Source: Nitrospiraceae bacterium
GTDB lineage: Bacteria; Nitrospirota; Nitrospiria; Nitrospirales; Nitrospiraceae
DNA length: 64,000 nucleotides
Direction of reading: 5' to 3'
NCBI GenBank assembly: GCA_046351095.1
Contig: JAXLZC010000001.1
Location: forward strand, 2,793,574-2,857,573
The translations under genes were made by a program, and so were the position numbers. Of this stretch, positions 3,815-53,191 are shown piece after piece; positions within the stretch are counted from its first letter, which is position 1, and every line of letters starts with the position of its first letter. The notes beneath the pieces are model-generated. The model searched no databases. It was given only the letters and a program-made list of their open reading frames with translations, and was not told the DNA's origin.

Positions 3815-5034
3815 GTTTTTGGGATCGCCTACCGCGTCCGATTGTCGGTCTCGCGCCGATGGATGGGGTGACCGACGCGACGTTCCGTCGCGTCGTCGCC
3901 TGCTCCGGCAAGCCCGACATTACCTTTACGGAATTCACCCACGTCAACGACATCTGTCGCGCGCCGGAGTTTTTACTCGACTCGCTCATCTATACCGAGG
4001 CCGAGCGTCCGATCGTCGCGCAGATTTACGGGCGCGATCCGGAGCTGTTTTATGTCGCGGCGCAAGTCGTCGGTGCGTTGGGTTTCGACGGGCTCGATAT
4101 CAATATGGGCTGTCCGTCGCGCAGTGTGGCCAATTCCGGTTCCGGCGCGGGACTCATTCGCACGCCGGATTTGGCTCGCGAAATTTTGGATGCGGCGCGT
4201 CGTGGCCTCGACGACTGGGCGATGGGCGCGGCGCTGCCCGTGACGCGACTGCGGAGTGGGCGCACGGAGTTGGTCGCGCGGATGAATACGGTACGCGCCG
4301 GCGACGCGACGGTGGCGCGGCGCCCGCTGCCGCTCTCGGTGAAGACGCGGCTCGGCTACGACTCGGACGTCATCGATTGGTGGATGGATTGGTTGCTCGC
4401 CTCGCATCCGGCAGCGATCACCGTGCATGGGCGCACGTTAGCGCAGATGTATCGCGGGCAGGCGGATTGGAGCGCGATCGCGCGCGCGGCGGTGCGGGCG
4501 CGCGGTACCGGCACGCTGGTGTTGGGGAACGGCGACGTGCAGTCGCTCGCCGATGCGCGACGACGTATCGCGGAAACTGGTGTGGACGGTGTCTTGGTCG
4601 GACGCAGCGCACTCGGCGAGCCCTGGTTTTTTCGCGAGCTGAGCATGGCGCGCGCCGCGTGGTCCGGCGAGAGCGTCGCATCGAGGACCGGCGCCGACAC
4701 GTTCGATCCTGTGGCCGACCGGCCGATGCGGATCGCCGCGATGCTGGAACATGCGCGCGTCTTCGAAGCCGTCGGTGGACGTGCGCGCTTTCAACATATC
4801 CGGAAGCACCTCGGTTGGTACTGTAAGGAATTTCCTCATGCGGCGGTGTTGCGCGGGCGGCTCGTTCGCGCGTCGTCGGTGGACGATGTCCTGCAGATCG
4901 TCGAAACCTTCGACCGAGAATTTGTCGCAGGCGATGCGGCGCCCAGCGCATTGGATCAATCGGCTTCCGGCAGCCTCCCGGCCGTCGATACGCCGCCCGC
5001 GTCCGCCTGCGTGTCGGCGAGTCTCTCCTCGTGA
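3811..5034 (+). CDS. tRNA-dihydrouridine synthase (Dus family)
   Basis: Starts MSFWDRLPRPIVGLAPMDGVTDATFRRV, followed by IAQIYG, DINMGCP and TVHGRT motifs. The start was trimmed from the longer ORF 3625..5034. Confidence 0.85.
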   Translation: MSFWDRLPRPIVGLAPMDGVTDATFRRVVACSGKPDITFTEFTHVNDICRAPEFLLDSLIYTEAERPIVAQIYGRDPELFYVAAQVVGALGFDGLDINMGCPSRSVANSGSGAGLIRTPDLAREILDAARRGLDDWAMGAALPVTRLRSGRTELVARMNTVRAGDATVARRPLPLSVKTRLGYDSDVIDWWMDWLLASHPAAITVHGRTLAQMYRGQADWSAIARAAVRARGTGTLVLGNGDVQSLADARRRIAETGVDGVLVGRSALGEPWFFRELSMARAAWSGESVASRTGADTFDPVADRPMRIAAMLEHARVFEAVGGRARFQHIRKHLGWYCKEFPHAAVLRGRLVRASSVDDVLQIVETFDREFVAGDAAPSALDQSASGSLPAVDTPPASACVSASLSS

Positions 5035-5801
5035 GCGCCGGTCCAGTCGTTGTGCTCGCGTCCACCTCGCCTCGACGGCGCGATCTGCTGACCCTGCTTC
5101 AGATTCCATTCGAGATTGTCTCGCCGGATTTCGACGAAACAACCGTCGCGGGATGTGCTCCGAGCGCGCAGGCCATCGCCTGTGCCGAGGGAAAAGCGCG
5201 GGCCGTTGCGCTTGCATCGGCGACATCGGGACGTCGCCACGAAGCGGCTGACGTTGTCGTGATCGGCAGCGATACCTTGATCGACCTCGATGGATTGGTG
5301 CTCGGCAAACCCGACTCGATCGCGCATGCGCGCGAGATGCTGGCGCAGTTGCGCGGGCGAGCACATCGCATTCGCACCGCCGTGTCGGTTTGTCGCGTGG
5401 GCCGCGAAGCCACGCCGACTCCGATTCCGACAATGTCTACGCGTCTCGTCACAGTCGAGGTGTGGATGAAGGCTTGGTCAACGGCTGACGTCGACGCGTA
5501 TCTCGCCACCGGCGAAAGTCTCGGGAAGGCTGGCGCCTACGCGATTCAAGGCGCGGGCGCCTCGTTGATCGACCGGATCGACGGCGACTTTACCGCGGCG
5601 GTCGGCTTGCCGGTACGCGAGACCGCCGAACTGTTGCGCGACGCAGGTCTATCGCTTCCGCTTGATGTGGACGAATTGTATCGACGTCGTCCGTTCGAGA
5701 ATTGGTCGCGATTTTCTGGATCGTCTTACACGAATCGGCAGGATGCGCGCAGCGATGGTGCGCCTCGAAACAGCGCGGCCCCGCGCCGGTCGCCACGTTG
5801 A
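5031..5801 (+). CDS. maf: Maf-like nucleoside triphosphate pyrophosphatase
   Basis: VVLASTSPRRRDLLTLLQIPFEIVSPDFDE and GKAGAYAIQG motifs. GTG start overlaps the dus stop. The Arg/Ser-rich C-terminal tail of about 50 aa is of doubtful reality. Confidence 0.8.
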   Translation: MSAGPVVVLASTSPRRRDLLTLLQIPFEIVSPDFDETTVAGCAPSAQAIACAEGKARAVALASATSGRRHEAADVVVIGSDTLIDLDGLVLGKPDSIAHAREMLAQLRGRAHRIRTAVSVCRVGREATPTPIPTMSTRLVTVEVWMKAWSTADVDAYLATGESLGKAGAYAIQGAGASLIDRIDGDFTAAVGLPVRETAELLRDAGLSLPLDVDELYRRRPFENWSRFSGSSYTNRQDARSDGAPRNSAAPRRSPR

Positions 5802-5887: not shown

Positions 5888-6568
5888 ATGGTGTCACATG
5901 CGTCTCACGTTATTCGTCGGAATGCCGCGACCGTGGCCGTTGTGCCGCTCGCGTTGATGTTCTGTGCGGTCGTCGCGCCGTCGAGCTGGGCGATCGACGT
6001 GAAGTTGTCGATGGACGAGGCGAAAAAGGCGTTGGCGGCCGGGCGCGAACCGATGGACAAGGCCAACACGGAAGACGAAGTGAAGAAGGTCATGCAGCAC
6101 GCGTCTATGGCCACGCGCGTCGGGGCGGATCCCGAGAAGGATGCGTGCGGGACGAGCGCGATCCTGCGCACGAAACGGTTCTGGCTCGAATCGTTCGGGC
6201 GGAAAGAAGCGACCGAATCCAAGAAGCAGAAGTCGGACGTCCGCATGCCGGACGACAAGATTCAGAAGTATCTCGACATGCCGAATCTGGAAGTCGAAGT
6301 GCAGCTCTGCGGCGACGACGAGTACTTCGCCGAAGGCGCGAAGGTGACGATGCAGCAGAAGGGCAAGAACATCGAGCCGGTGGATGTCGGTCAGGCCGAA
6401 CGCGGCCGTAAGCTGGAACTCGCCGACAAGTCCACCGCCTACCGCTCGCGCTTCACCGCGCGATTTGCGTACGACGCTTTCGATCCGAATGCCAAGACCA
6501 AGTTCCTCGTCACCCAGCAAGACGGGAAGATGAGCGAATTCGACGCCGACCTCTCCAAAGTAAAATAG
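5888..6568 (+). CDS. hypothetical secreted protein (signal peptide)
   Basis: ATG at 5888 follows an AGGAGG Shine-Dalgarno. The N-terminus is hydrophobic (VAVVPLALMFCAVVAPSSWA), then charged and Lys-rich. No family recognised. Confidence 0.5.
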   Translation: MVSHASHVIRRNAATVAVVPLALMFCAVVAPSSWAIDVKLSMDEAKKALAAGREPMDKANTEDEVKKVMQHASMATRVGADPEKDACGTSAILRTKRFWLESFGRKEATESKKQKSDVRMPDDKIQKYLDMPNLEVEVQLCGDDEYFAEGAKVTMQQKGKNIEPVDVGQAERGRKLELADKSTAYRSRFTARFAYDAFDPNAKTKFLVTQQDGKMSEFDADLSKVK

Positions 6569-6595
6569 TCCGTTCCCCGCCGCCGGTTAGCTGTA

Positions 6596-6683
6596 TTTGG
6601 GGAATAAAAACGTAAACTGAATAAAAAGTTGTAAACTGAAGCGTCGCCCCTCCAAATCAATTTGGGAATAAAGTCGTAAACTA
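6596..6683. repeat. three degenerate direct repeats (GGGAATAAA-N2-3-GTAAACT core) at the left edge of the low-GC island
   Basis: The copies are tttggggaataaaaacgtaaactga (6596-6620), ataaaaagttgtaaactga (6621-6639) and tttgggaataaagtcgtaaacta (6661-6683). Confidence 0.6.
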
Positions 6684-7066
6684 GATCAATTGTTTTTGGA
6701 AGCTGGTGTCTAATGGAGGTATCACCATTATCTCTGCCTGAAGCCCAGGGTTCTCGCCCGCGCGCAAGTGATTGCGTGCTCTGCTCAAGCATGCCACCCA
6801 TACTGCTCTAAAGCAGCACTCAAAATGCTGAAATCTAGTCGGCCTAACTGCCCAAGGCAAACTGTGTCGTTTGAGCCTTGATTGATCTCCGACCCCGGTA
6901 AGGTTGGGCGCTAGCTGCAGACGGCCAGGAGCGGAAGTTCGTTGCCGAGATCGCACCGTCATAAAGCGATCCTTCGCTCTGACGCATTACGTTTTAAGCT
7001 CACCTGCGGGCGACAGACCGCGAAGCGAGCTGGCGAACGGCAGGTGGAGTAAAGGATTAGCCAGCA

Positions 7067-7792
7067 CTAAGTGTACCTCGGAGTTCCAAGCAAGCTGGTA
7101 ATTCTGATTCTGTCTTCGATGCCATGCGCCTTCGCGGCGGCCCGAATGGCCTCGGCGTCAGTCTCGGGCAGCAATGGTCCGAGGTAGATGTGCTCGATGA
7201 GCTTTGGAACATCGAACTCCACCTTCACTCCGTGCTCGGGAACTTGAACGCCGAACTCCTCCGCCGTGCGGACTGATACAGCCAAACGAAACTCGCGTTC
7301 CCATGCGAAGGCCATGTGCTTGTACCAGAACCGGTCCATCATGCTTACGCGGAGCCGCTCCTTTAGTAGGTCTACATAATTCACGTTCCCGGCCCACAGG
7401 TCTTCATATCCGTAGTCAGGCTTCAGGCGGAATGGCTTGGCGGCGGCTTGAATTCTGTCTGCATTCGTGCACGCGGCAACACCCTTTCGTGAACCAGCGT
7501 AAAGCTGCCACATCGCATCGCTTTCGTAGCTCGCACGGTGCCAGCAACTGACCTTCGTAAGTCGTCGCAGTTCTTCGAAGGCCTTCTCACCGAACTCTAG
7601 TTCCGTATAGCGAGGGTCAACGGGGAATCCTGGCGGGAGGACAGCCACTGCCCCTTCGAAGGGATCACCAAATTGCCGTGCTGACGCGAAGTACAGATGG
7701 CTGGACTGCAGCAGTTCCAAGAATCTTTCTGTTCTGAAATATCGCCAGAGTTGCTCGTTCAAGTCGAGTTCTTGATTGCCGATAATGCGCAC
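7067..7792 (-). CDS. DUF2971-like protein (uncharacterised family)
   Basis: The maximal ORF is 7067..7834 with a GTG start. An in-frame GTG at 7792 follows an AGGAGA Shine-Dalgarno and is the more likely start. The motif HLYFASARQFGDPFEG matches the DUF2971 signature (LYFSS..FNDPFE). GC is lower than in the flanks. Confidence 0.6.
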   Translation of the reverse strand: MRIIGNQELDLNEQLWRYFRTERFLELLQSSHLYFASARQFGDPFEGAVAVLPPGFPVDPRYTELEFGEKAFEELRRLTKVSCWHRASYESDAMWQLYAGSRKGVAACTNADRIQAAAKPFRLKPDYGYEDLWAGNVNYVDLLKERLRVSMMDRFWYKHMAFAWEREFRLAVSVRTAEEFGVQVPEHGVKVEFDVPKLIEHIYLGPLLPETDAEAIRAAAKAHGIEDRIRITSLLGTPRYT

Positions 7793-7906
7793 GCCGTCTC
7801 CTGTACTGGCTAATGTTGGAGTTGACCGGCACACTGCCGTTGCGTGTCCGTGTCGAACGACCAGTTAGGCCGCATTTCTGACTCCTGCGGGGCTGTCTTC
7901 AACCAC

Positions 7907-8839
7907 TTACAGCCCGAAAAACATCCTCCGCTCCTCGCTCTTGTGCAAATCATGTGTGGCTATGTGATATAGCTTGGGTTCAACTACGTTAGACCATAGC
8001 CGGAAAGGTAGGTCATCGATGCAAATTTCCCCCACGACTGCAGAGAAGTCCTTCTCGTAGCAGTCTCGCAAGATCTTCAAGTTCGTGGACGGAAAGCTGT
8101 CTTTGAACTCTTTGTTGAAGGTTGGATAGAAGTACCGGATGAATGCGGCTTCATACAAACAAATTCGCTCTTCCTCCGTTGTATTGAAAAGCTTGTCTAG
8201 CCCCTGTTTGATTCTCGTTCCGCCTTCATCCTTGTTCTTTGCGAAGGGGTTGATCGAGGTTATCAGCCGATTGTTCGACTCAATCGCCAGCAGGAGAAGA
8301 GTGATTCGATGCCCTTCTGGCACTCCCTTCAACGCGATTTTCTGAAGCGTCTCGTGCTTGAGAAGGCGATCTATGGCATTTCTAGAACCGTCTTGACCAT
8401 AGGCCTGCCCTACATACTTGACCTCGAACTTGAATGCACCTGTGGTAGCAGCCAGCCTGGTCTGCATCTCCATCTCGCTGGGCCGAAATCTTCTTCCGGA
8501 GTCGTCACCGAGGTACCAAAGTTCGCCGTCGGCCTTAAGCGAGAGGCCCTCGGGGAGAACGAATTCGATCACATGGTTTTGCGTGAGGACTTCGAACGTT
8601 AGGAGAAGACTTTGGTCTTTCTGTGCGGCACCGACAAACTCTATCTTTGGGGTATAGCCAATTAGGTAAATGTGGCACGTGTCAATGACGCTCCCCAGCG
8701 GTGCAAGCGCCTCCTTGTCGTAAATGCCCTCTGCCGGGATTGTGCAGAAACTGAGCGCATACATATTTAGTGCATGTTCAATGTTAAAGGCGGCCTTTCC
8801 AAAGATCTCTTCCTTGGTGGGTTTCTTAGAGTCAGCCAC
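7907..8839 (-). CDS. hypothetical 310-aa protein, no family recognised (possible divergent GIY-YIG-like core)
   Basis: GTG start preceded by an AAGGAG Shine-Dalgarno. This is the lowest-GC segment of the window (about 42% in a sampled 60-nt line). The segments KYVGQAYGQDGSRNAIDRLLKH and EERICLYEAAFIRYFYPTFNKEF loosely resemble the GIY-YIG YIG/R..H and E...N elements. Confidence 0.55.
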   Translation of the reverse strand: MADSKKPTKEEIFGKAAFNIEHALNMYALSFCTIPAEGIYDKEALAPLGSVIDTCHIYLIGYTPKIEFVGAAQKDQSLLLTFEVLTQNHVIEFVLPEGLSLKADGELWYLGDDSGRRFRPSEMEMQTRLAATTGAFKFEVKYVGQAYGQDGSRNAIDRLLKHETLQKIALKGVPEGHRITLLLLAIESNNRLITSINPFAKNKDEGGTRIKQGLDKLFNTTEEERICLYEAAFIRYFYPTFNKEFKDSFPSTNLKILRDCYEKDFSAVVGEICIDDLPFRLWSNVVEPKLYHIATHDLHKSEERRMFFGL

Positions 8840-8970
8840 TGTTGTTCTCCTTCATCTCCTGATCCGGTCCAGCCTGTGAAGGTTCAATTGAGTAGCACGT
8901 CGGCCTCGTGCGGTCTAACAATGTTTAGACGGATCCATAATGAGACCGAAGTGTGCGATTTTCTATCCGC

Positions 8971-8999
8971 GATAATGGGGTCGATGGATAATGGGGTCG
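8971..8999. repeat. 13-bp perfect tandem direct repeat (GATAATGGGGTCG x2, 3-nt spacer) upstream of the island operon
   Basis: gataatggggtcg occurs at 8971-8983 and again at 8987-8999, about 130 nt upstream of the GTG at 8839. Confidence 0.6.
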
Positions 9000-9119
9000 G
9001 GAGTTGATGAGCGCCCTATTCCGATCCACAACTCGATGCGAACCCACTTCTAGCTGTCGGCGAGGTGGATCACGTACAATGCGCGGCGTTGCTCGGTCAG
9101 CACGACGGATAGAGAACGA

Positions 9120-10364
9120 TTGTCAGACTTTGATGACGGGAGCGCGTACGATATGGCGATAGAGGGAATTACGCAGCAGGTCAGCGAGCGGTATGCGCGC
9201 GCGGCGAGTACGGGCGAGCAGATGTGTTGCCCGACCAGCTACGACATGCGGCACTTAAAGACGTTTATCCCGGAGGAAGTGCTGAGTATTTCGTACGGGT
9301 GCGGCACGCCGGCGGGATTGGAGACGGTGCGGGCGGGTGAGACGGTGGTGGATATCGGTTCGGGCGGCGGCATCGACTGCTTCGAGGCGTCGCGATTGGT
9401 GGGGCCGTCCGGGCATGTGATCGGGATCGACATGACGGACACGATGTTGACCATCGCGCGCAAGCACGCGGGCGTCGTCGCGGAGAATCTCGGCTACCCG
9501 ACCAGCAACGTAGAATTCCGCAAGGGCATGGCCGATGCGATGCCGATCGAGGACGGCACGGCGGACCTGATCATCTCCAACTGCGTCATCAATCTCGCGC
9601 CGGATAAGCGTAAGGTCTTCCACGAAATGTTCCGCGTCGCCAAGGCGGGCGGACGGTTTACGATTTCCGACATCGTCGCGGATCAGCCCGTCCCGCAGTA
9701 TCTCGTGCACGATGCCGCAAAGTGGGGCGATTGTTTATCCGGGTCGTTGACGTTGGCAGACTATCTTGGGGGATTGGTGGAGGCGGGATTCCGGGGCGTG
9801 CATTTGCTGAAGTCGTCGCCCTGGCAGCGTATCGATGGCATTCACTTTTTCTCCGTGACGCTTACCGGCTACAAGTTGGATCGGAGCGCCGCGTTGGCCG
9901 AGTCCGCTGCGAGTAGCGCAGGTACGGCGCGATTCGCCACGTTGCGTGGACCGTTCAGCCGCGTCGTGGACGAAGACGGGCTCGAGTTTGTGCGAGGGGT
10001 GGCGCAGGCGATCACACCTGAGACGGCACAGCGGTTGATGTCGCCAGCCAGTGCGCCGCATTTCATTGTGTCCGACACACCGGTGAATTTGGGCGGTGAC
10101 GATGCACGCCGACACGCCGTGCTTCCCGCGGAGGCGCCTTGTGTCTGGGCCGGAGATTTTGCGTCGTTGGCTGGTCCGTTCCGTGAGGCGCAGGATGACG
10201 ACCACCATGTGTATCGGCGCGGCGAGCCGCTGGAGATTTGCTCGAAGACGCGCGCGGTGTTGGATCACGCGGGGTATGCGTCGCACTTTGTGATGTTGAA
10301 TCGCGCAAGTCAGCCGGTCGGCGGCGATGCGGTCGCCTGTGCGCCTACCGGTGGGTGTTGTTAG
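9120..10364 (+). CDS. arsM: SAM-dependent arsenite methyltransferase-like protein (ArsM, arsenosugar-cluster type) with about 150-aa C-terminal extension
   Basis: YGCGTPAGLETVRAGETVVDIGSGGGIDCF, IGIDMTDTML and ISNCVINLAPDK motifs. Cys-rich C-terminus (CAPTGGCC). TTG start. Confidence 0.75.
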   Translation: MSDFDDGSAYDMAIEGITQQVSERYARAASTGEQMCCPTSYDMRHLKTFIPEEVLSISYGCGTPAGLETVRAGETVVDIGSGGGIDCFEASRLVGPSGHVIGIDMTDTMLTIARKHAGVVAENLGYPTSNVEFRKGMADAMPIEDGTADLIISNCVINLAPDKRKVFHEMFRVAKAGGRFTISDIVADQPVPQYLVHDAAKWGDCLSGSLTLADYLGGLVEAGFRGVHLLKSSPWQRIDGIHFFSVTLTGYKLDRSAALAESAASSAGTARFATLRGPFSRVVDEDGLEFVRGVAQAITPETAQRLMSPASAPHFIVSDTPVNLGGDDARRHAVLPAEAPCVWAGDFASLAGPFREAQDDDHHVYRRGEPLEICSKTRAVLDHAGYASHFVMLNRASQPVGGDAVACAPTGGCC

Positions 10365-10367
10365 GAC

Positions 10368-11417
10368 TTGCCGATGCCGCCGCTGACGTTACTCGGTCGC
10401 CAGAGTCCGCTTGCCTCGTCCGACGAACAACTTCGCCGCTTGGCCGAGACCGACGCCTGTCCGCCGTTCGAATCCCAATTGGCGCAAGCCGGATTGTTCC
10501 CGCTGCAGGCGACCGGTATTCGTGTCCTCCAACTCAACGTCGGCAAACTGTGCAATCAATCCTGTCGGCATTGCCACGTCGACGCCGGTCCTGACCGTAC
10601 GGAGCAGATGTCGCGCGAAACGGCGGAGGCGTGCCTGGCCGCGCTGGCGCAGACGGATATCCCGACGGTGGATATCACCGGCGGCGCGCCGGAGCTGAAT
10701 CCGAATTTTCGGTGGATCGTCGAGCAGGCGCGCGCGCTCGGCCGCCATGTGATGGACCGCTGCAATTTGTCCGTGCTGTTGATTCCGTCGCAGCAGGACC
10801 TGGCCGAGTTCCTCGCGCAGCATCAGGTTGAGATCGTGGCGTCGCTGCCGTCCTATCGCGCCAGTCAAACCGATGCGCAGCGCGGCGACGGCATTTTCGA
10901 GAAGTCGATCGAAGGGCTCCAGCGGTTAAATGCGCTGGGCTACGGCACGGCGGGGAGCGGGCTCGCGCTGAACCTCGTCTACAATCCCGTCGGGGCGTTT
11001 CTGCCGCCGAAACAAGAGGCGATCGAAGCGCAGTTCCGCAAAGAGTTGCGCACCAAGTACGGCGTGGAGTTCACGTCGCTCTACACGATCACGAATATGC
11101 CGGTGAGCCGCTACCTCGAATGGCTGTTGGAGAGCGGGAATTACGAGGCGTACATGGAGCGCCTCGCGCAAGCGTTTAATCCTGCGGCGGCCGCCGGCGT
11201 GATGTGTCGCACGACGCTGTCGGTAGGTTGGGACGGCACGCTCTACGACTGCGACTTCAACCAAATGCTCGATCTCTCCGTGGACCACGGCGCACCGCGC
11301 CATATCCGCGATTTCGACCCCGCCAGACTCCAGCACCGCACGATCGTCACTCGCAACCATTGTTACGGGTGCACCGCCGGCTCCGGCTCCTCCTGCGGCG
11401 GCGCCGTCACGACGTAG
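10368..11417 (+). CDS. arsS: radical SAM/Cys-rich domain protein, arsenosugar biosynthesis ArsS type
   Basis: Radical SAM motif CNQSCRHCH. C-terminal Cys-rich motif CYGCTAGSGSSCGG. It lies immediately downstream of the arsM-like gene. Confidence 0.8.
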   Translation: MPMPPLTLLGRQSPLASSDEQLRRLAETDACPPFESQLAQAGLFPLQATGIRVLQLNVGKLCNQSCRHCHVDAGPDRTEQMSRETAEACLAALAQTDIPTVDITGGAPELNPNFRWIVEQARALGRHVMDRCNLSVLLIPSQQDLAEFLAQHQVEIVASLPSYRASQTDAQRGDGIFEKSIEGLQRLNALGYGTAGSGLALNLVYNPVGAFLPPKQEAIEAQFRKELRTKYGVEFTSLYTITNMPVSRYLEWLLESGNYEAYMERLAQAFNPAAAAGVMCRTTLSVGWDGTLYDCDFNQMLDLSVDHGAPRHIRDFDPARLQHRTIVTRNHCYGCTAGSGSSCGGAVTT

Positions 11418-43390: not shown

Positions 43391-45904
43391 GTGCCCTCCA
43401 TGCTGCTGCGCTCACGTCGATATCGCGTTCCTAATCAGCTCGTTCGTAGCCCGCACGCTGCGCCTATGGCCCATTGCCTGCGAGCCAGTCTCGTGGCCGC
43501 GGGGCTGGTGATCGCAGGGTTGTACGGAGCCACGTTCGGCGCAGCACAGGCCGCCAATTCAGAACCTACACAATCGACGTCGGACGCGACCCCGGCCACG
43601 ACTCCGCCATCTTCGACATCGACTACGACGAACGCCGCGACTTCATCCACTGCAGGGCAACCTGCTGTCGTCTGCGATGACCCTGAACGATGTTTCCGCG
43701 AGGCGATGCAGCGAACGAATCGTACGTCGCCGCTCGACGCGAAAGATGTGCTTGCTCGCCTCGATAAGTTGCAACCGATTCTGGAGCAGCATGCCGGGTC
43801 GCTCTGGGCAAAACGCGCGGGGTTGGTGATGGGGGTGGCGCTGCGCGAGCGCGATCCCGGACGCGCGATCCAACATTTGCGAATGGCGCGGCGTGACTTT
43901 CCGGTGCTCGATGAGTATGTGCGGCTCTGGACGGGCCAGGCGCTTATGGCGGCGGGCGATACGGCGGAAGGCGCGGCGATGCTGCAGTCCATCGGAGAAG
44001 TGGCGCCGGGCAGCCTAATCGCCTCGCGCGCCACGTTCGAAGCGGCGGAAGGCTGGTATCGGAGCGGCCATTGCGACCGAGCCATCGCGCTGTATCCGAA
44101 GGCGTTCCGGACGGACGACAACGAAAAAATCAAAGACACGACGTTCCCCGCCGGGTACCTGCATCTCGCCGACTGTTTCCAGCAGTTGCAACAATCGGCC
44201 GACGCGCAAGACACCTGGCGGCGACTTTGGGTGAAGTATCCCGGCGCGCCCGAGGCAAGGGCGGCGTATCAGCGGCTGACAGCACCTGGCCCAACGACGT
44301 TCAAGCCTTCTGCAGAAGATCGATTGGCGCGTGCGAAAGAACTACACGCGCAGGCGTTGCACGAGGAGGCGATCGAAGAGTTTCGTCAGGTGTTCGCTGG
44401 GCCCGCCGGATTGTCGGCCGGGGCGTTGAGCGAGGCGAAGTCCAAGCTGGGCATGTCCTACGTGCGCGTGAAGCGGTACGACCAAGCCAAGACCGTGTTC
44501 CAAGAATTAATCTCGGCGCGCGCGTCCGAAGCCGGTGAGGCGGTGGTGTGGCTCGCGCGCGTGTATCTACGGTTGTCCGAAGGCGAGGCGTTGCTGAAGT
44601 TGCCGCAGGCCTATCCGAAGGTGTCGCTCACGAGCGAGCAACGGGCGATGGTTTATATCCTGCGCGGTGTCTGGCAGGAAGATCAGAACAACAGCGTGGC
44701 CGCGGCCGAGGCATACAAAAAGGCGGCGGAGCAGGGTGTTACCAGCAACCACTATAGCGAAGCGCTCTGGAAAATCGGCTGGGTCTGGTATCGCGCCGGC
44801 CAATGGAAATTGGCGTTGGCCGCCTGGGAGAAGTTGGCCGCGCAACCAGAGCGGGACACGTTGGTGCCGCAGGCCCTCTATTGGATGGCGCGCACCGGCG
44901 AGCGGAATAAAGATTCGCGGGCCAATGATTGGTATCGCCAGGTCTGCCAACGGTATCCCGTGACGTATTATTGTCAGCTCGCGCGTCAGCGCGATGCGGG
45001 CTTGCCGTTGCGTGTCACGACGGCCGATCCCACGGTGGATTTGCCTGGCCCCGAAAGCCTGCCTACCGACAAACGTGAGGAAGTGACGCGCGACCCTGCC
45101 TATCGCCGTGCCGTGGAGTTGCGGTTGTTAGGCTTGGATCAGGATGCCGCGCGTGAGTTGACCGACCTGACGCAGCGCCATGCGCGCGAGCAACCGGTCG
45201 TGCTGGCGCTGTCGCGGTTGTTGGGCGAGGCCGGGGCGCATGGGCAGGCCTTGCGGTTGGCGCGTGTGCATTTCCGCGATGAACTGGAATTGCGCGGGAC
45301 GCTGAGCACTCCGGCCTTGTGGAACGTCGGGTATCCGACCGTGTTTGTGCCGACCATCGCCGCGCAGGGTATGAAGGGTGTGGATCCCTACTTGGCGGCG
45401 GCCGTGATCCGCGAGGAAAGCCAATACGATGGGCGCGCCGTCTCGCGCGTCGGCGCCATCGGGTTGATGCAGGTCATGCCGGCGACGGCCAGCGCGGTCG
45501 CCAAACGATTCGGCTTGGCGGACGTGACGCGCGACGAATTGTTCGACGAAACGACGAACGTGCGGATCGGCGTGCGGTATCTGGATCAGCTCTTGGAGCA
45601 GTTCCAAGGCAACGTCCACTACGCGGTCGCCTCGTACAACGCGGGTCCGCAGGCGGTCGCCTCCTGGGTTGCGAAACACGGCAGCAGGGATCCGGACGAA
45701 TTCGTGGAGTTAATTCCCTACCAAGAAACCCGACTCTACGTGAAACGCGTCGTCCGCAGTTATCGCGAGTATCGCCGACTGAACGACGCGGATCGTAGCA
45801 CTGCGACCGATCGCGCGACCGCGCCGGTCGCCGCTGCTGCAGCGGGCGGCGCAGCGCCCACCCCCGTGTCGTCGTCGCCTGCGCTTGCCGTCGCGACGGA
45901 GTAG
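43391..45904 (+). CDS. soluble lytic murein transglycosylase (Slt70-like, TPR/superhelical N-domain)
   Basis: The C-terminal domain carries EESQYD, GLMQVMPATA and SYNAGP. Long helical-repeat N-terminus with a signal sequence. Confidence 0.8.
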   Translation: MPSMLLRSRRYRVPNQLVRSPHAAPMAHCLRASLVAAGLVIAGLYGATFGAAQAANSEPTQSTSDATPATTPPSSTSTTTNAATSSTAGQPAVVCDDPERCFREAMQRTNRTSPLDAKDVLARLDKLQPILEQHAGSLWAKRAGLVMGVALRERDPGRAIQHLRMARRDFPVLDEYVRLWTGQALMAAGDTAEGAAMLQSIGEVAPGSLIASRATFEAAEGWYRSGHCDRAIALYPKAFRTDDNEKIKDTTFPAGYLHLADCFQQLQQSADAQDTWRRLWVKYPGAPEARAAYQRLTAPGPTTFKPSAEDRLARAKELHAQALHEEAIEEFRQVFAGPAGLSAGALSEAKSKLGMSYVRVKRYDQAKTVFQELISARASEAGEAVVWLARVYLRLSEGEALLKLPQAYPKVSLTSEQRAMVYILRGVWQEDQNNSVAAAEAYKKAAEQGVTSNHYSEALWKIGWVWYRAGQWKLALAAWEKLAAQPERDTLVPQALYWMARTGERNKDSRANDWYRQVCQRYPVTYYCQLARQRDAGLPLRVTTADPTVDLPGPESLPTDKREEVTRDPAYRRAVELRLLGLDQDAARELTDLTQRHAREQPVVLALSRLLGEAGAHGQALRLARVHFRDELELRGTLSTPALWNVGYPTVFVPTIAAQGMKGVDPYLAAAVIREESQYDGRAVSRVGAIGLMQVMPATASAVAKRFGLADVTRDELFDETTNVRIGVRYLDQLLEQFQGNVHYAVASYNAGPQAVASWVAKHGSRDPDEFVELIPYQETRLYVKRVVRSYREYRRLNDADRSTATDRATAPVAAAAAGGAAPTPVSSSPALAVATE

Positions 45905-52267: not shown

Positions 52268-53191
52268 ATGAAAGTGTTGGTGACGGGCGGCGCGGGGTTT
52301 ATCGGGTCACACCTTGTCGACCGGTTGGTGCAGGAAGGCCACGAGGTGGTGGTCGTCGACAACCTTTCGACCGGCAAGCGGAAGAACGTCAATAAGGCAG
52401 CCACGTTTTACAAGTGCGACATCCAGAACACGCGCCTCGAGCGGATTTTCCGGAACGAGCGCCCCTCGGTCGTCATGCACCTGGCCGCGCAGATGAACGT
52501 GCGCCGGTCGGTGGACGAGCCGATGTTCGATGCGAACGTGAATATTTTGGGCACGCTCAACGTCGCCGAGCAGGCGGTCCGGCACGGTGCGCGGAAGATC
52601 GTGTTTGCCTCGTCAGGCGGCGCCATCTATGGGGAGCAGGACATTTTCCCCGCGCCGGAAACGCATCCCACGCGGCCACTGTCGCCGTACGGTATCAGCA
52701 AGCTGAGCGGCGAGCACTATCTCGCCTACTACCAGCGCGTCTGCGGTATTCAGACGGTCTGTCTGCGCTTCGCGAACGTGTATGGGCCGCGGCAGGATCC
52801 GGAAGGCGAGGCGGGTGTTGTCGCGATTTTTATCCAAAAGCTGTTGAACGGCGAGCAGCCGGTCATCAACGGCAACGGGCGGCAGACGCGCGACTTCGTC
52901 TACGTCGAGGATGTCGTCGAAGCCAACCTCTCGGTCATGGCGCAGGGTGTGGAGGGGGTGTTCAACGTGGGCACCTCCGTGGAAACGACCGTGAACGAGG
53001 TGTTCGGCCACATTCGCGAGAGTGCGCAGTCCGAGGCGAAGGAAGTGCATGGTCCCGCCAAGAAGGGCGAGCAATTGCGTAGCTGCGTCGATCCTACCAA
53101 GTTGAAGCAGCAGCTTGGGTGGGAGCCGCGGATGACGTTGGCGGAAGGGTTGAAGCGGACGGTCGAGTATTTCCGCGAGAAGCTGAAGTAA
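52268..53191 (+). CDS. NAD-dependent epimerase/dehydratase (UDP-glucose 4-epimerase-like)
   Basis: MKVLVTGGAGFIGSHLV and the YGISK catalytic motif. Confidence 0.8.
   Translation: MKVLVTGGAGFIGSHLVDRLVQEGHEVVVVDNLSTGKRKNVNKAATFYKCDIQNTRLERIFRNERPSVVMHLAAQMNVRRSVDEPMFDANVNILGTLNVAEQAVRHGARKIVFASSGGAIYGEQDIFPAPETHPTRPLSPYGISKLSGEHYLAYYQRVCGIQTVCLRFANVYGPRQDPEGEAGVVAIFIQKLLNGEQPVINGNGRQTRDFVYVEDVVEANLSVMAQGVEGVFNVGTSVETTVNEVFGHIRESAQSEAKEVHGPAKKGEQLRSCVDPTKLKQQLGWEPRMTLAEGLKRTVEYFREKLK

Follow-up and report, generated by a model that had tools for sequence, protein, structure and literature searches.

Do two adjacent genes of low GC (guanine plus cytosine) content in a Nitrospiraceae chromosome make up one defence system, or did each of them arrive on its own? 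The question is raised by an island at positions 6569-9119 of a 64,000-nucleotide (nt) stretch of contig JAXLZC010000001.1 (assembly GCA_046351095.1, positions 2,793,574 to 2,857,573), hereafter the window, which belongs to a Nitrospiraceae metagenome-assembled genome (MAG). The island carries gene A, encoding a protein of 310 amino acids (aa), and gene B, encoding a 241-aa DUF2971 protein, both labelled 'hypothetical' in the public annotation. A prediction made from the sequence alone (the original prediction) held that they form one horizontally acquired operon, an uncharacterised kind of two-gene system with a role in conflict. We believe, with a probability of roughly 0.75, that positions 6919-8971 are the remnant of a horizontally acquired integron cassette array without an integrase, and that A and B are two independent single-gene cassettes within it. 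Such a remnant resembles a CALIN (cluster of attC sites lacking integron integrase), a term that reportedly comes from the IntegronFinder work of Cury et al. in 2016.

Results

The mobile unit consists of a leader, cassette A, cassette B and a tail, is read on the minus strand, and extends over 2,053 bp (6919..8971). The whole unit, with A and B, was found at 96.7% nucleotide identity and with sharp ends between different flanks in the contigs L134, L136, L137 and L138, which supports the predicted horizontal acquisition. Smaller blocks were shared with other loci. L053 and L054 share 7511-8971, that is, A and the first ~94 codons of B, followed by a different 3' part and a canonical attC. Only B is shared by L058 and L139 (6922/6925-7812/7813, 96% identity) and by L055 and L056 (7052-7813, 89%). 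The canonical crossover point of integron R' boxes is G/TT (the slash marks the break). The B-only homology to L055 begins at window position 7813 (L055 position 1047), which is the first of the two Ts in GTTAGCC; L055 has the G of this box in front of it, and the window has A. In about 10 B homologues the upstream DNA is unrelated as far as ...GTTAGCC, directly after which comes AGCACAGGAGAC-start. The break that leaves B alone falls exactly on a cassette junction. At L053 1259-1765, a 168-aa chimeric or truncated DUF2971 gene is 97% DNA-identical to B over its first ~94 codons. The remainder differs and leads into a canonical attC (GCCTAAC...GTTAGTC, 44.6 bits), as if recombination had occurred within the open reading frame (ORF) of a cassette.

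An attC site lies 3' of an ORF on the same strand, is 57-141 nt long, and is bounded by the mutually complementary boxes R'' (RYYYAAC) and R' (GTTRRRY). Between them lies an L''/L' stem with an extrahelical base, separated from the R boxes by spacers of 5-6 nt. A regular-expression scanner for such sites (strict R boxes, ungapped L run) missed those of the island and gave two palindromes elsewhere, and it was replaced by two covariance models, home-made from fetched loci and roughly calibrated. For model R1, 16 sites adjoining homologues of A or B were used; the independent model R2 comes from 20 sites that all belong to other cassettes. In each training set, ~85% of cells show pairing of the R and L boxes, versus 21-45% in controls with shifted partner columns, and the L boxes covary. 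The window was scanned on both strands with filters off (128 kb searched).

The best window match of R2 was the spacer between A and B. This site, attC_A (7808..7870, minus strand; GCCTAAC-TGGTC-GTTCGAC...GTCAAC-TCCAAC-aTTAGCC, 63 nt), scored 25.1 bits (E = 0.0014), the next match scored 14.1 bits, and with R1 it ranked third in the 128 kb. It starts 36 nt past the stop codon of A, and the distance from stop to R'' is also 36 nt in L053, L004 and L005. Its R'' box GCCTAAC fits the consensus, the first base of its R' box aTTAGCC is A and not G, and in the stem GTTCGAC pairs with GTCAAC, leaving one extra G. The top window match of R1 was a decayed site, attC_B (6984..7062, minus strand; GGCTAAT-CCTTT-ACTCCACCTGC...GCAGGTGAGC-TTAAAAC-GTAATGC, 79 nt), at 15.6 bits (E = 0.17); R2 matched it partially at 8.8 bits. 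It starts 4 nt past the stop codon of B. Both of its R boxes are mutated, with AAT for AAC in GGCTAAT and GTA for GTT in GTAATGC, and ACTCCACCTGC pairs with GCAGGTGAG, again with one extra G. The covariance-model alignments put the L boxes of attC_A and attC_B in modelled helices. In position and architecture attC_B matches the canonical attCs after the B homologues of L055, L065, L067 and L068 (55-61 bits). The mutated R boxes of attC_A and attC_B are read as decay, since the homologous sites elsewhere are canonical.

A weak third attC-like site (6842..6909, minus strand; GCCCAAC...GTTAGGC; R2 9.0 bits, E = 7.1) has R'' and R' boxes that fit the consensus; pairing of its L boxes was not found by eye, and it may be due to chance. 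Three of the 13 R2 matches at E <= 10 lay on the gene strand within the 2.5-kb island, where we estimate that ~0.25 would be expected. Single-sequence DNA folding of the spacers gave unremarkable z values (-0.3 to -1.8), and energy alone does not identify the sites. No terminator-like T-run was found after either gene. An 11-nt perfect inverted repeat (6840-6850 / 7862-7872) was given no weight alone, since about one is expected by chance in 2.9 kb. Far from the island, two weak isolated matches to the attC models on the minus strand, at 45098-45133 (14.1 bits, E = 0.48; a mere R-box palindrome, GCCTAAC…GATAGGC) and 52921-53008 (12.6 bits, E = 0.93), are probably chance.

In other loci, diverse A and B homologues are single-gene integron cassettes bounded by canonical attC sites. 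Strong attCs supported by the covariance models flank the A homologues of L004 (5864-5945 and 6967-7036), L006, L007, L009, L022 and L023, and attC boxes were recognised by eye in several Vibrionaceae and Marinomonas loci. The sites after A homologues (L004, L006, L007, L009, L022 and others) read GCCTAAC...GTTRRRY. B homologues are flanked by attCs in L055, L059, L065, L067, L068, L072, L087, L090, L098 and L107. Many of them are followed by a textbook site such as that of L068, GGCTAAC-CCCTC-ATTCCAGCGG...CCGCTGAAT-TCAAAC-GTTAGAT. The best R1 matches in the fetched loci reached 39-68 bits, and the weakest listed at E <= 1 had ~16 bits. There were six gene-strand R1 sites in each of L004 and L009, and eight in L139 (six at 20-39 bits, two weak at 10-15 bits). 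The data indicate that both genes are ordinary cargo of integron cassettes and not the uncharacterised kind of system that had been proposed. The attC before the B homologue of L061 (179-265) resembles attC_A (…ACGCGGACACGCAAC…GTGCCGGT…TCCAAC), but its R' box is the canonical GTTAGCC, and the 178 nt that precede this attC showed no A homologue. This suggests an attC type common to different cassettes.

Conserved co-occurrence of A and B across lineages was not found. At the 52 genome loci with an A homologue, no homologue of B occurred within 6 kb, and 50 of these loci had no conserved neighbour of any kind. Clustering of all ORFs around the A loci gave no family common to more than three loci. 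Among 133 loci, 55 carried A and 81 carried B, and both were present together only in L053, L054 and L057; in L053, A is intact and B is truncated. The loci L134-L138, which are additional to this count, belong to the same lineage, and all co-occurrences of A and B come from this one lineage of ~97%-identical DNA. The idea of one operon or two-gene system is not supported by these results. Searches of plasmids gave only distant relatives, at most 54% identical.

The start of gene B (7067..7792, minus strand; U0172_13275) was placed at the GTG at 7792, behind AGGAG, because nearly all homologues and the public gene call have 241 aa; the longest ORF is 7067-7834. Therefore, the gap between A and B is 114 nt and not 72 nt as first described. 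Protein B passed the Pfam model DUF2971 marginally (22.5 bits, cutoff 22) and matched the PADLOC family PDC-S31 (PDLC04993; E = 2e-19, residues 20-249 on profile positions 8-234 of 245) and phrog_34615 (E = 1e-28). No match for it was found in NCBIfam, nor in a profile search of PDB sequences with the B alignment. There were 575 B homologues, and the best 120, at 67-98% identity, occur in Burkholderiales, Shewanella, Chromobacterium, Pseudomonadaceae and Planctomycetes MAGs. Residues H85, Y98, E165 and E167 were invariant among 21 homologues.

DUF2971 can no longer be described as a domain without an assigned function (PMC12522546, PMC11381338). One study predicts that it is an ADP-ribosyltransferase (ART) and places it close to DarT and AbiGi in the H-Y-E clade; a Tyr and an ExE motif are conserved (PMC12522546). 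Aristaios, a DUF2971 protein of lactococcal plasmids, has been shown experimentally to be a single-gene anti-phage system, for which its authors inferred abortive infection (PMC11381338). On the basis of these two studies for the fold, B is predicted to be an ADP-ribosyltransferase.

Gene A (7907..8839, minus strand; U0172_13280) starts with GTG behind AAGGAG. Its product had been called an orphan; this no longer holds, with 810 homologues at E <= 0.001, including relatives of 65-95% identity in Acidovorax, Comamonas, Geomonas, Idiomarina and others. A second, Bacteroidota-centred branch comprises 585 homologues. Across 45 sequences, down to 23% identity, the invariant residues are E21, I57, Y58, Y142, G144, Q145, R153, R158, H162, E230, N242, K246, D264 and E271. 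They include Y-I-G-Q ... R-x3-H ... E-x11-N, which we take to be the GIY-YIG signature; Y142, R158, H162, E230 and N242 would then presumably be the catalytic Tyr, Arg, His/Tyr, Glu and Asn, as mapped from I-TevI and UvrC. Five distant A homologues (P0291, P0295, P0297, P0300 and P0306) pass the Pfam model GIY_YIG_2 (24.8-28.3 bits, cutoff 22.4), and this region aligns to residues 119-253 of the window protein. Residues 119-310 align to P0300 with E = 2e-25. One distant homologue is named 'GIY-YIG nuclease family protein' in UniRef. Protein A also matches phrog_15714; NCBIfam and PADLOC gave no match, and neither did PDB sequences searched with a profile from the A alignment. From these residues and alignments, protein A is predicted to be a member of a divergent GIY-YIG nuclease family. 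The first 'GIY' strand does not adjoin the 'YIG' part; the invariant I57-Y58 lies ~84 residues upstream, which would point to a large beta-rich insertion.

The neighbourhoods of the unit in other contigs are defence-island-like. DSR1 (defence-associated sirtuin) adjoins the A-B block in L134 and L053. In L053 (2796-6557) it has 1,253 aa (1,143 bits), and in L134 (4710-8515) it consists of two overlapping ORFs of 334 aa (E = 6e-52) and 934 aa (E = 1e-167), perhaps a frameshift or a split variant. B of L055 lies near a type-IV-A DinG-like helicase, and L139 is a multi-cassette array with a PDC-M72B-like gene. This supports a conflict role of the cargo and does not prove it. The defence role assigned to the island is thus plausible, given the match of B to PDC-S31, the Aristaios precedent and DSR1 beside the unit.

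The ends of the unit carry additional elements. Upstream of cassette A lies a conserved leader of ~50 nt (8920..8971, minus strand), common to L053, L054 and L134. It has repeated TTATCGCGGAT / TTATGGAT motifs (TTAYSSGGAT-like) and ends in GTCTAAAC-ATT-GTTAGAC. The end of this inverted core (8913..8930, minus strand) is a canonical R' box (GTTRRRY), 73 nt before the start codon of A, and the core gave weak palindromic covariance-model matches on both strands (8.6-8.9 bits). A similar leader (~70% identical by eye) precedes a 70%-identical A homologue in L006, after cysD/cysNC, and GTTAGAC also precedes A there. The leader resembles attI1 in its layout of direct repeats and a simple site, and is possibly attI-like; no integrase lies beside it, and the core at 8913-8930 is a resemblance only. 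The homology break at 8971 coincides with a perfect 13-nt tandem repeat (GATAATGGGGTCG twice, 16-nt period; 8971..8999, copies at 8971-8983 and 8987-8999) that abuts the right end of the unit. A similar CCCC..ATTAT motif occurs at the equivalent place in L006.

At the other end, cassette B closes with a conserved 62-nt tail (6922..6983, minus strand), which contains GAGGA-N8-ATG and a hairpin and is common to L058 and L139. The tail element (~62-75 nt) occurs in L139 at 1430-1498, 4633-4706 and 7034-7101, and also after B in L134 and L058. It sits after attC-like sites and before different cassettes, and at its GAGGA-N8-ATG begins a mini-ORF that is short and rich in arginine (M-T/A-V-R-S-R-R-R-T-S). 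The element may be a 5' leader common to several cassettes, or else a small repeat element.

The GC content of the island was 0.527 versus 0.615 for the window, the lowest of any 2.5-kb stretch in the 64 kb. Relative to 36 long ORFs, gene A had 0.501 (z = -5.5) and gene B 0.555 (z = -3.0). The drop in GC seen in the original prediction is therefore real, but its single-line values of 42% and 70% overstate the contrast, as the flanks have 0.60-0.66. Both genes lie on the minus strand between plus-strand genes, as described (ORFs 7907-8839 and 7067-7834). The GTG starts behind Shine-Dalgarno sequences also stood for A, while that of B had to be moved. To the left, on the plus strand, are Maf (5031-5801) and a 226-aa hypothetical protein (5888-6568); to the right, also on the plus strand, is the ArsM-like methyltransferase gene arsM, from 9120 (9153 in the public call). 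Together with arsS, an arsenosugar-biosynthesis radical-SAM gene (TIGR04167, E = 8e-137), the latter forms an arsenic-organification pair (9120-11417, plus strand) that abuts the island. No relatives of at least 90% identity to the flanking proteins U0172_13270 and Maf were found in the genome collection.

The non-coding margins with short direct repeats were also confirmed: ~498 nt (6569-7066) and 280 nt (8840-9119) hold no convincing gene. A 93-aa ORF at 6681-6962 (minus strand) was rejected, as its L058 counterpart has a stop at codon 15. The AT-rich spacer at 6569..6841 matches no fetched locus and contains a 34-nt direct repeat in two imperfect copies (6597-6630 and 6661-6694, 76% identical). 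Besides these repeats, three copies of GTAAACT were seen in the part after the 226-aa gene (6597-6694). This part may belong to the host, as a regulatory or terminator region, or may mark the end of the island. As had been noted, there is no tRNA, and the search of the 64-kb window found none; no Rfam family was found in 6000-9600.

Discussion

The unit shares its main features with integron cassettes and CALIN. A and B are single-ORF modules on one strand, with no sigma-70 consensus promoter found in the island region. An imperfect palindrome of attC type (R''-L''...L'-R', 63-79 nt) follows each ORF of the window unit, the boundaries lie at G/TTRRRY, the same genes recur in unrelated arrays, and no integrase is nearby. 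The junctions and the arrays elsewhere establish the cassette structure and the independence of the two genes. Unlike a typical CALIN, the window unit has one statistically solid site, mutated R' (aTTAGCC, GTAATGC) and R'' (GGCTAAT) boxes and hence a probably dead array, adds the conserved leader and tail, and lies among housekeeping-type genes of a Nitrospiraceae chromosome.

Several observations weigh against a cassette array. An IntI-like ORF, whose absence the original prediction had reported, was not found in the 64 kb either (best tblastn hit to an IntI-like tyrosine recombinase, E = 0.72), although it may lie elsewhere on the 3.16-Mb contig. The probe was a class-1 integrase sequence, which detected recombinases in L010 and L047. 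A complete integron (intI, attI and Pc) was likewise not found in the window. Only one window site is individually significant: attC_B has 15.6 bits and the third site 9 bits, versus 20-68 bits for intact attCs. The R' boxes of attC_A and attC_B fail GTTRRRY, and the pair of complementary consensus boxes expected of an attC is absent from both. The 8971 end is a non-canonical cassette boundary, and the leader and 62-nt tail are foreign to textbook cassettes. The A-B block has stayed intact in two or more contexts, which fits selection for the pair without requiring it. As for the assignment of A, the window protein itself has no Pfam match at E <= 1. The proposed Foldseek check was run for A with AlphaFold2 (AF2) models. 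A first model had a predicted local distance difference test score (pLDDT) of 64; the model with a deep alignment reached pLDDT 84 and a predicted template modelling score (pTM) of 0.81. Both models against PDB, and the latter against BFVD, gave noise only; a whole-chain search with a 310-aa protein that has insertions may miss a core of ~90 aa.

It is unlikely that the two genes are co-transcribed and work together as one defence or abortive-infection system, in which A might be a nuclease effector and B an ART sensor or effector. The genes do share a strand, are 114 nt apart and have no terminator-like site between them. The pair is intact in two contexts (window/L057; L134 and L136-L138), the mutated crossover base of the intervening attC implies joint inheritance, and multi-ORF defence cassettes are known (10.1101/2024.07.02.601719). 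Their co-occurrence is nevertheless confined to one DNA lineage, as described above, with A at just 3 of 81 B loci. Moreover, L058 and L139 have B (96% identical) without A, L053 combines an intact A with a truncated B, either gene can be found elsewhere as the only gene of a complete cassette, and PDC-S31 and Aristaios are single-gene entities. Damaged sites, which have probably frozen the cassettes together, would explain the adjacency of A and B without functional coupling.

The GIY-YIG residues raise another possibility, quite improbable in our view, that A is a selfish free-standing homing-type endonuclease gene which spreads itself and the leader intergenically, that B is a hitch-hiker, and that defence is not the role of A. 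The patchy but highly conserved distribution of A across phyla, its phrog_15714 match, the leader and A after housekeeping genes in L006 (cysNC) and in the window, and the many A homologues without a recognisable attC are in line with this. Against it, no intron, intein or phage-gene context was seen, and the neighbouring DSR1 fits a defence island. Because canonical attCs bound a substantial minority of A homologues (at least six loci with covariance-model support), integron capture is a demonstrated route for A. A remnant of a prophage or another non-integron islet (a 'moron' pair), with the attC-like hairpins as terminators or chance palindromes, is very improbable. Both proteins match PHROG families, two of the three window sites are individually non-significant, and no integrase is present. 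Yet no phage structural or replication genes lie beside the pair, no T-run follows either gene, and R2 scores nothing in the 128 kb higher than the A-B spacer, whose R''-spacer-L''...L'-spacer-R' layout is correct. The breakpoints at G/TT half-sites and the homologues in multi-attC arrays also disagree with such an islet.

We therefore return to the cassette array remnant, which would lie between a host hypothetical gene and arsM, with cassettes A and B head-to-tail on the same strand. Cassette A would run from the GTTAGAC R' box through the gene of the 310-aa putative GIY-YIG-family nuclease to the 63-nt attC, and cassette B from the TTAGCC half-site through the DUF2971 gene to the decayed attC and the 62-nt tail. 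Because the R boxes of attC_A and attC_B are damaged, the array is probably no longer recombination-competent, and the cassettes are probably frozen together and move as one 2-kb block. Each protein alone would act as a conflict effector. B may be an NAD+-dependent ADP-ribosyltransferase, DarT/AbiGi-like, that causes abortive infection as in Aristaios, and A may be a metal-dependent GIY-YIG endonuclease that cuts nucleic acid, most plausibly invading DNA.

Known systems share some features with A and B and differ in others. Like Aristaios and PDC-S31, B has a DUF2971 domain, is a single-gene unit and has a predicted ADP-ribosyltransferase fold. Aristaios has 316 aa, unlike the 241 aa of B, and the two are likened by the shared domain; PDC-S31 is a candidate defence family only (PADLOC). 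The invariant H85, Y98 and E165-x-E167 of B resemble DarT, the single-stranded DNA thymidine ADP-ribosyltransferase toxin of DarTG. Unlike DarTG, B has no DarG-like macrodomain antitoxin beside it, and no match to the PADLOC DarT models at E <= 1. A shares YIGQ, R-x3-H and E-x11-N with GIY-YIG nucleases (Pfam GIY_YIG_2, PF20815; Eco29kI, the UvrC N-domain and I-TevI), but it is below Pfam detection and has no structural match and no partner methyltransferase.

Phage defence by integron cassettes has been reported. At least one third of the tested mobile-integron cassettes of unknown function gave phage resistance (bioRxiv 10.1101/2024.07.02.601719). Stand-alone anti-phage genes in small cassettes are found as BRiCs of mobile integrons and in sedentary chromosomal integrons (10.1101/2024.07.02.601719; 10.64898/2026.03.17.712381; PMC12614218). 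The cassettes of A and B are likewise small and carry candidate stand-alone genes, but the integron platform is missing here. GIY-YIG or ADP-ribosyltransferase cassettes are not mentioned in 10.1101/2024.07.02.601719 or 10.64898/2026.03.17.712381. It is conceivable, though doubtful, that the A family is a previously unrecognised stand-alone anti-phage GIY-YIG nuclease. Its GIY strand (invariant I57-Y58) would be split from the YIG strand by a beta-rich insertion of ~80 residues. The family would spread through Proteobacteria, Bacteroidota and Nitrospirota chiefly in integron cassettes that have a conserved attI-like leader of their own, and would often land beside DSR1. A weaker variant of this idea is that the A-B block, now frozen, has become a cooperative nuclease-plus-ART system.

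In this study, a supposed two-gene defence island of mysterious nature is better regarded as a probable fossil cluster of integron cassettes, with cargo from families already flagged (DUF2971/PDC-S31) or recognisable (GIY-YIG). Adjacency in a low-GC islet should not be equated with an operon when the unit is a cassette array. The A family, widespread and always 'hypothetical', is put forward as a single-gene nuclease cassette open to testing. The locus indicates that candidate defence genes reach a Nitrospiraceae chromosome in integron cassettes or in remnants of them.

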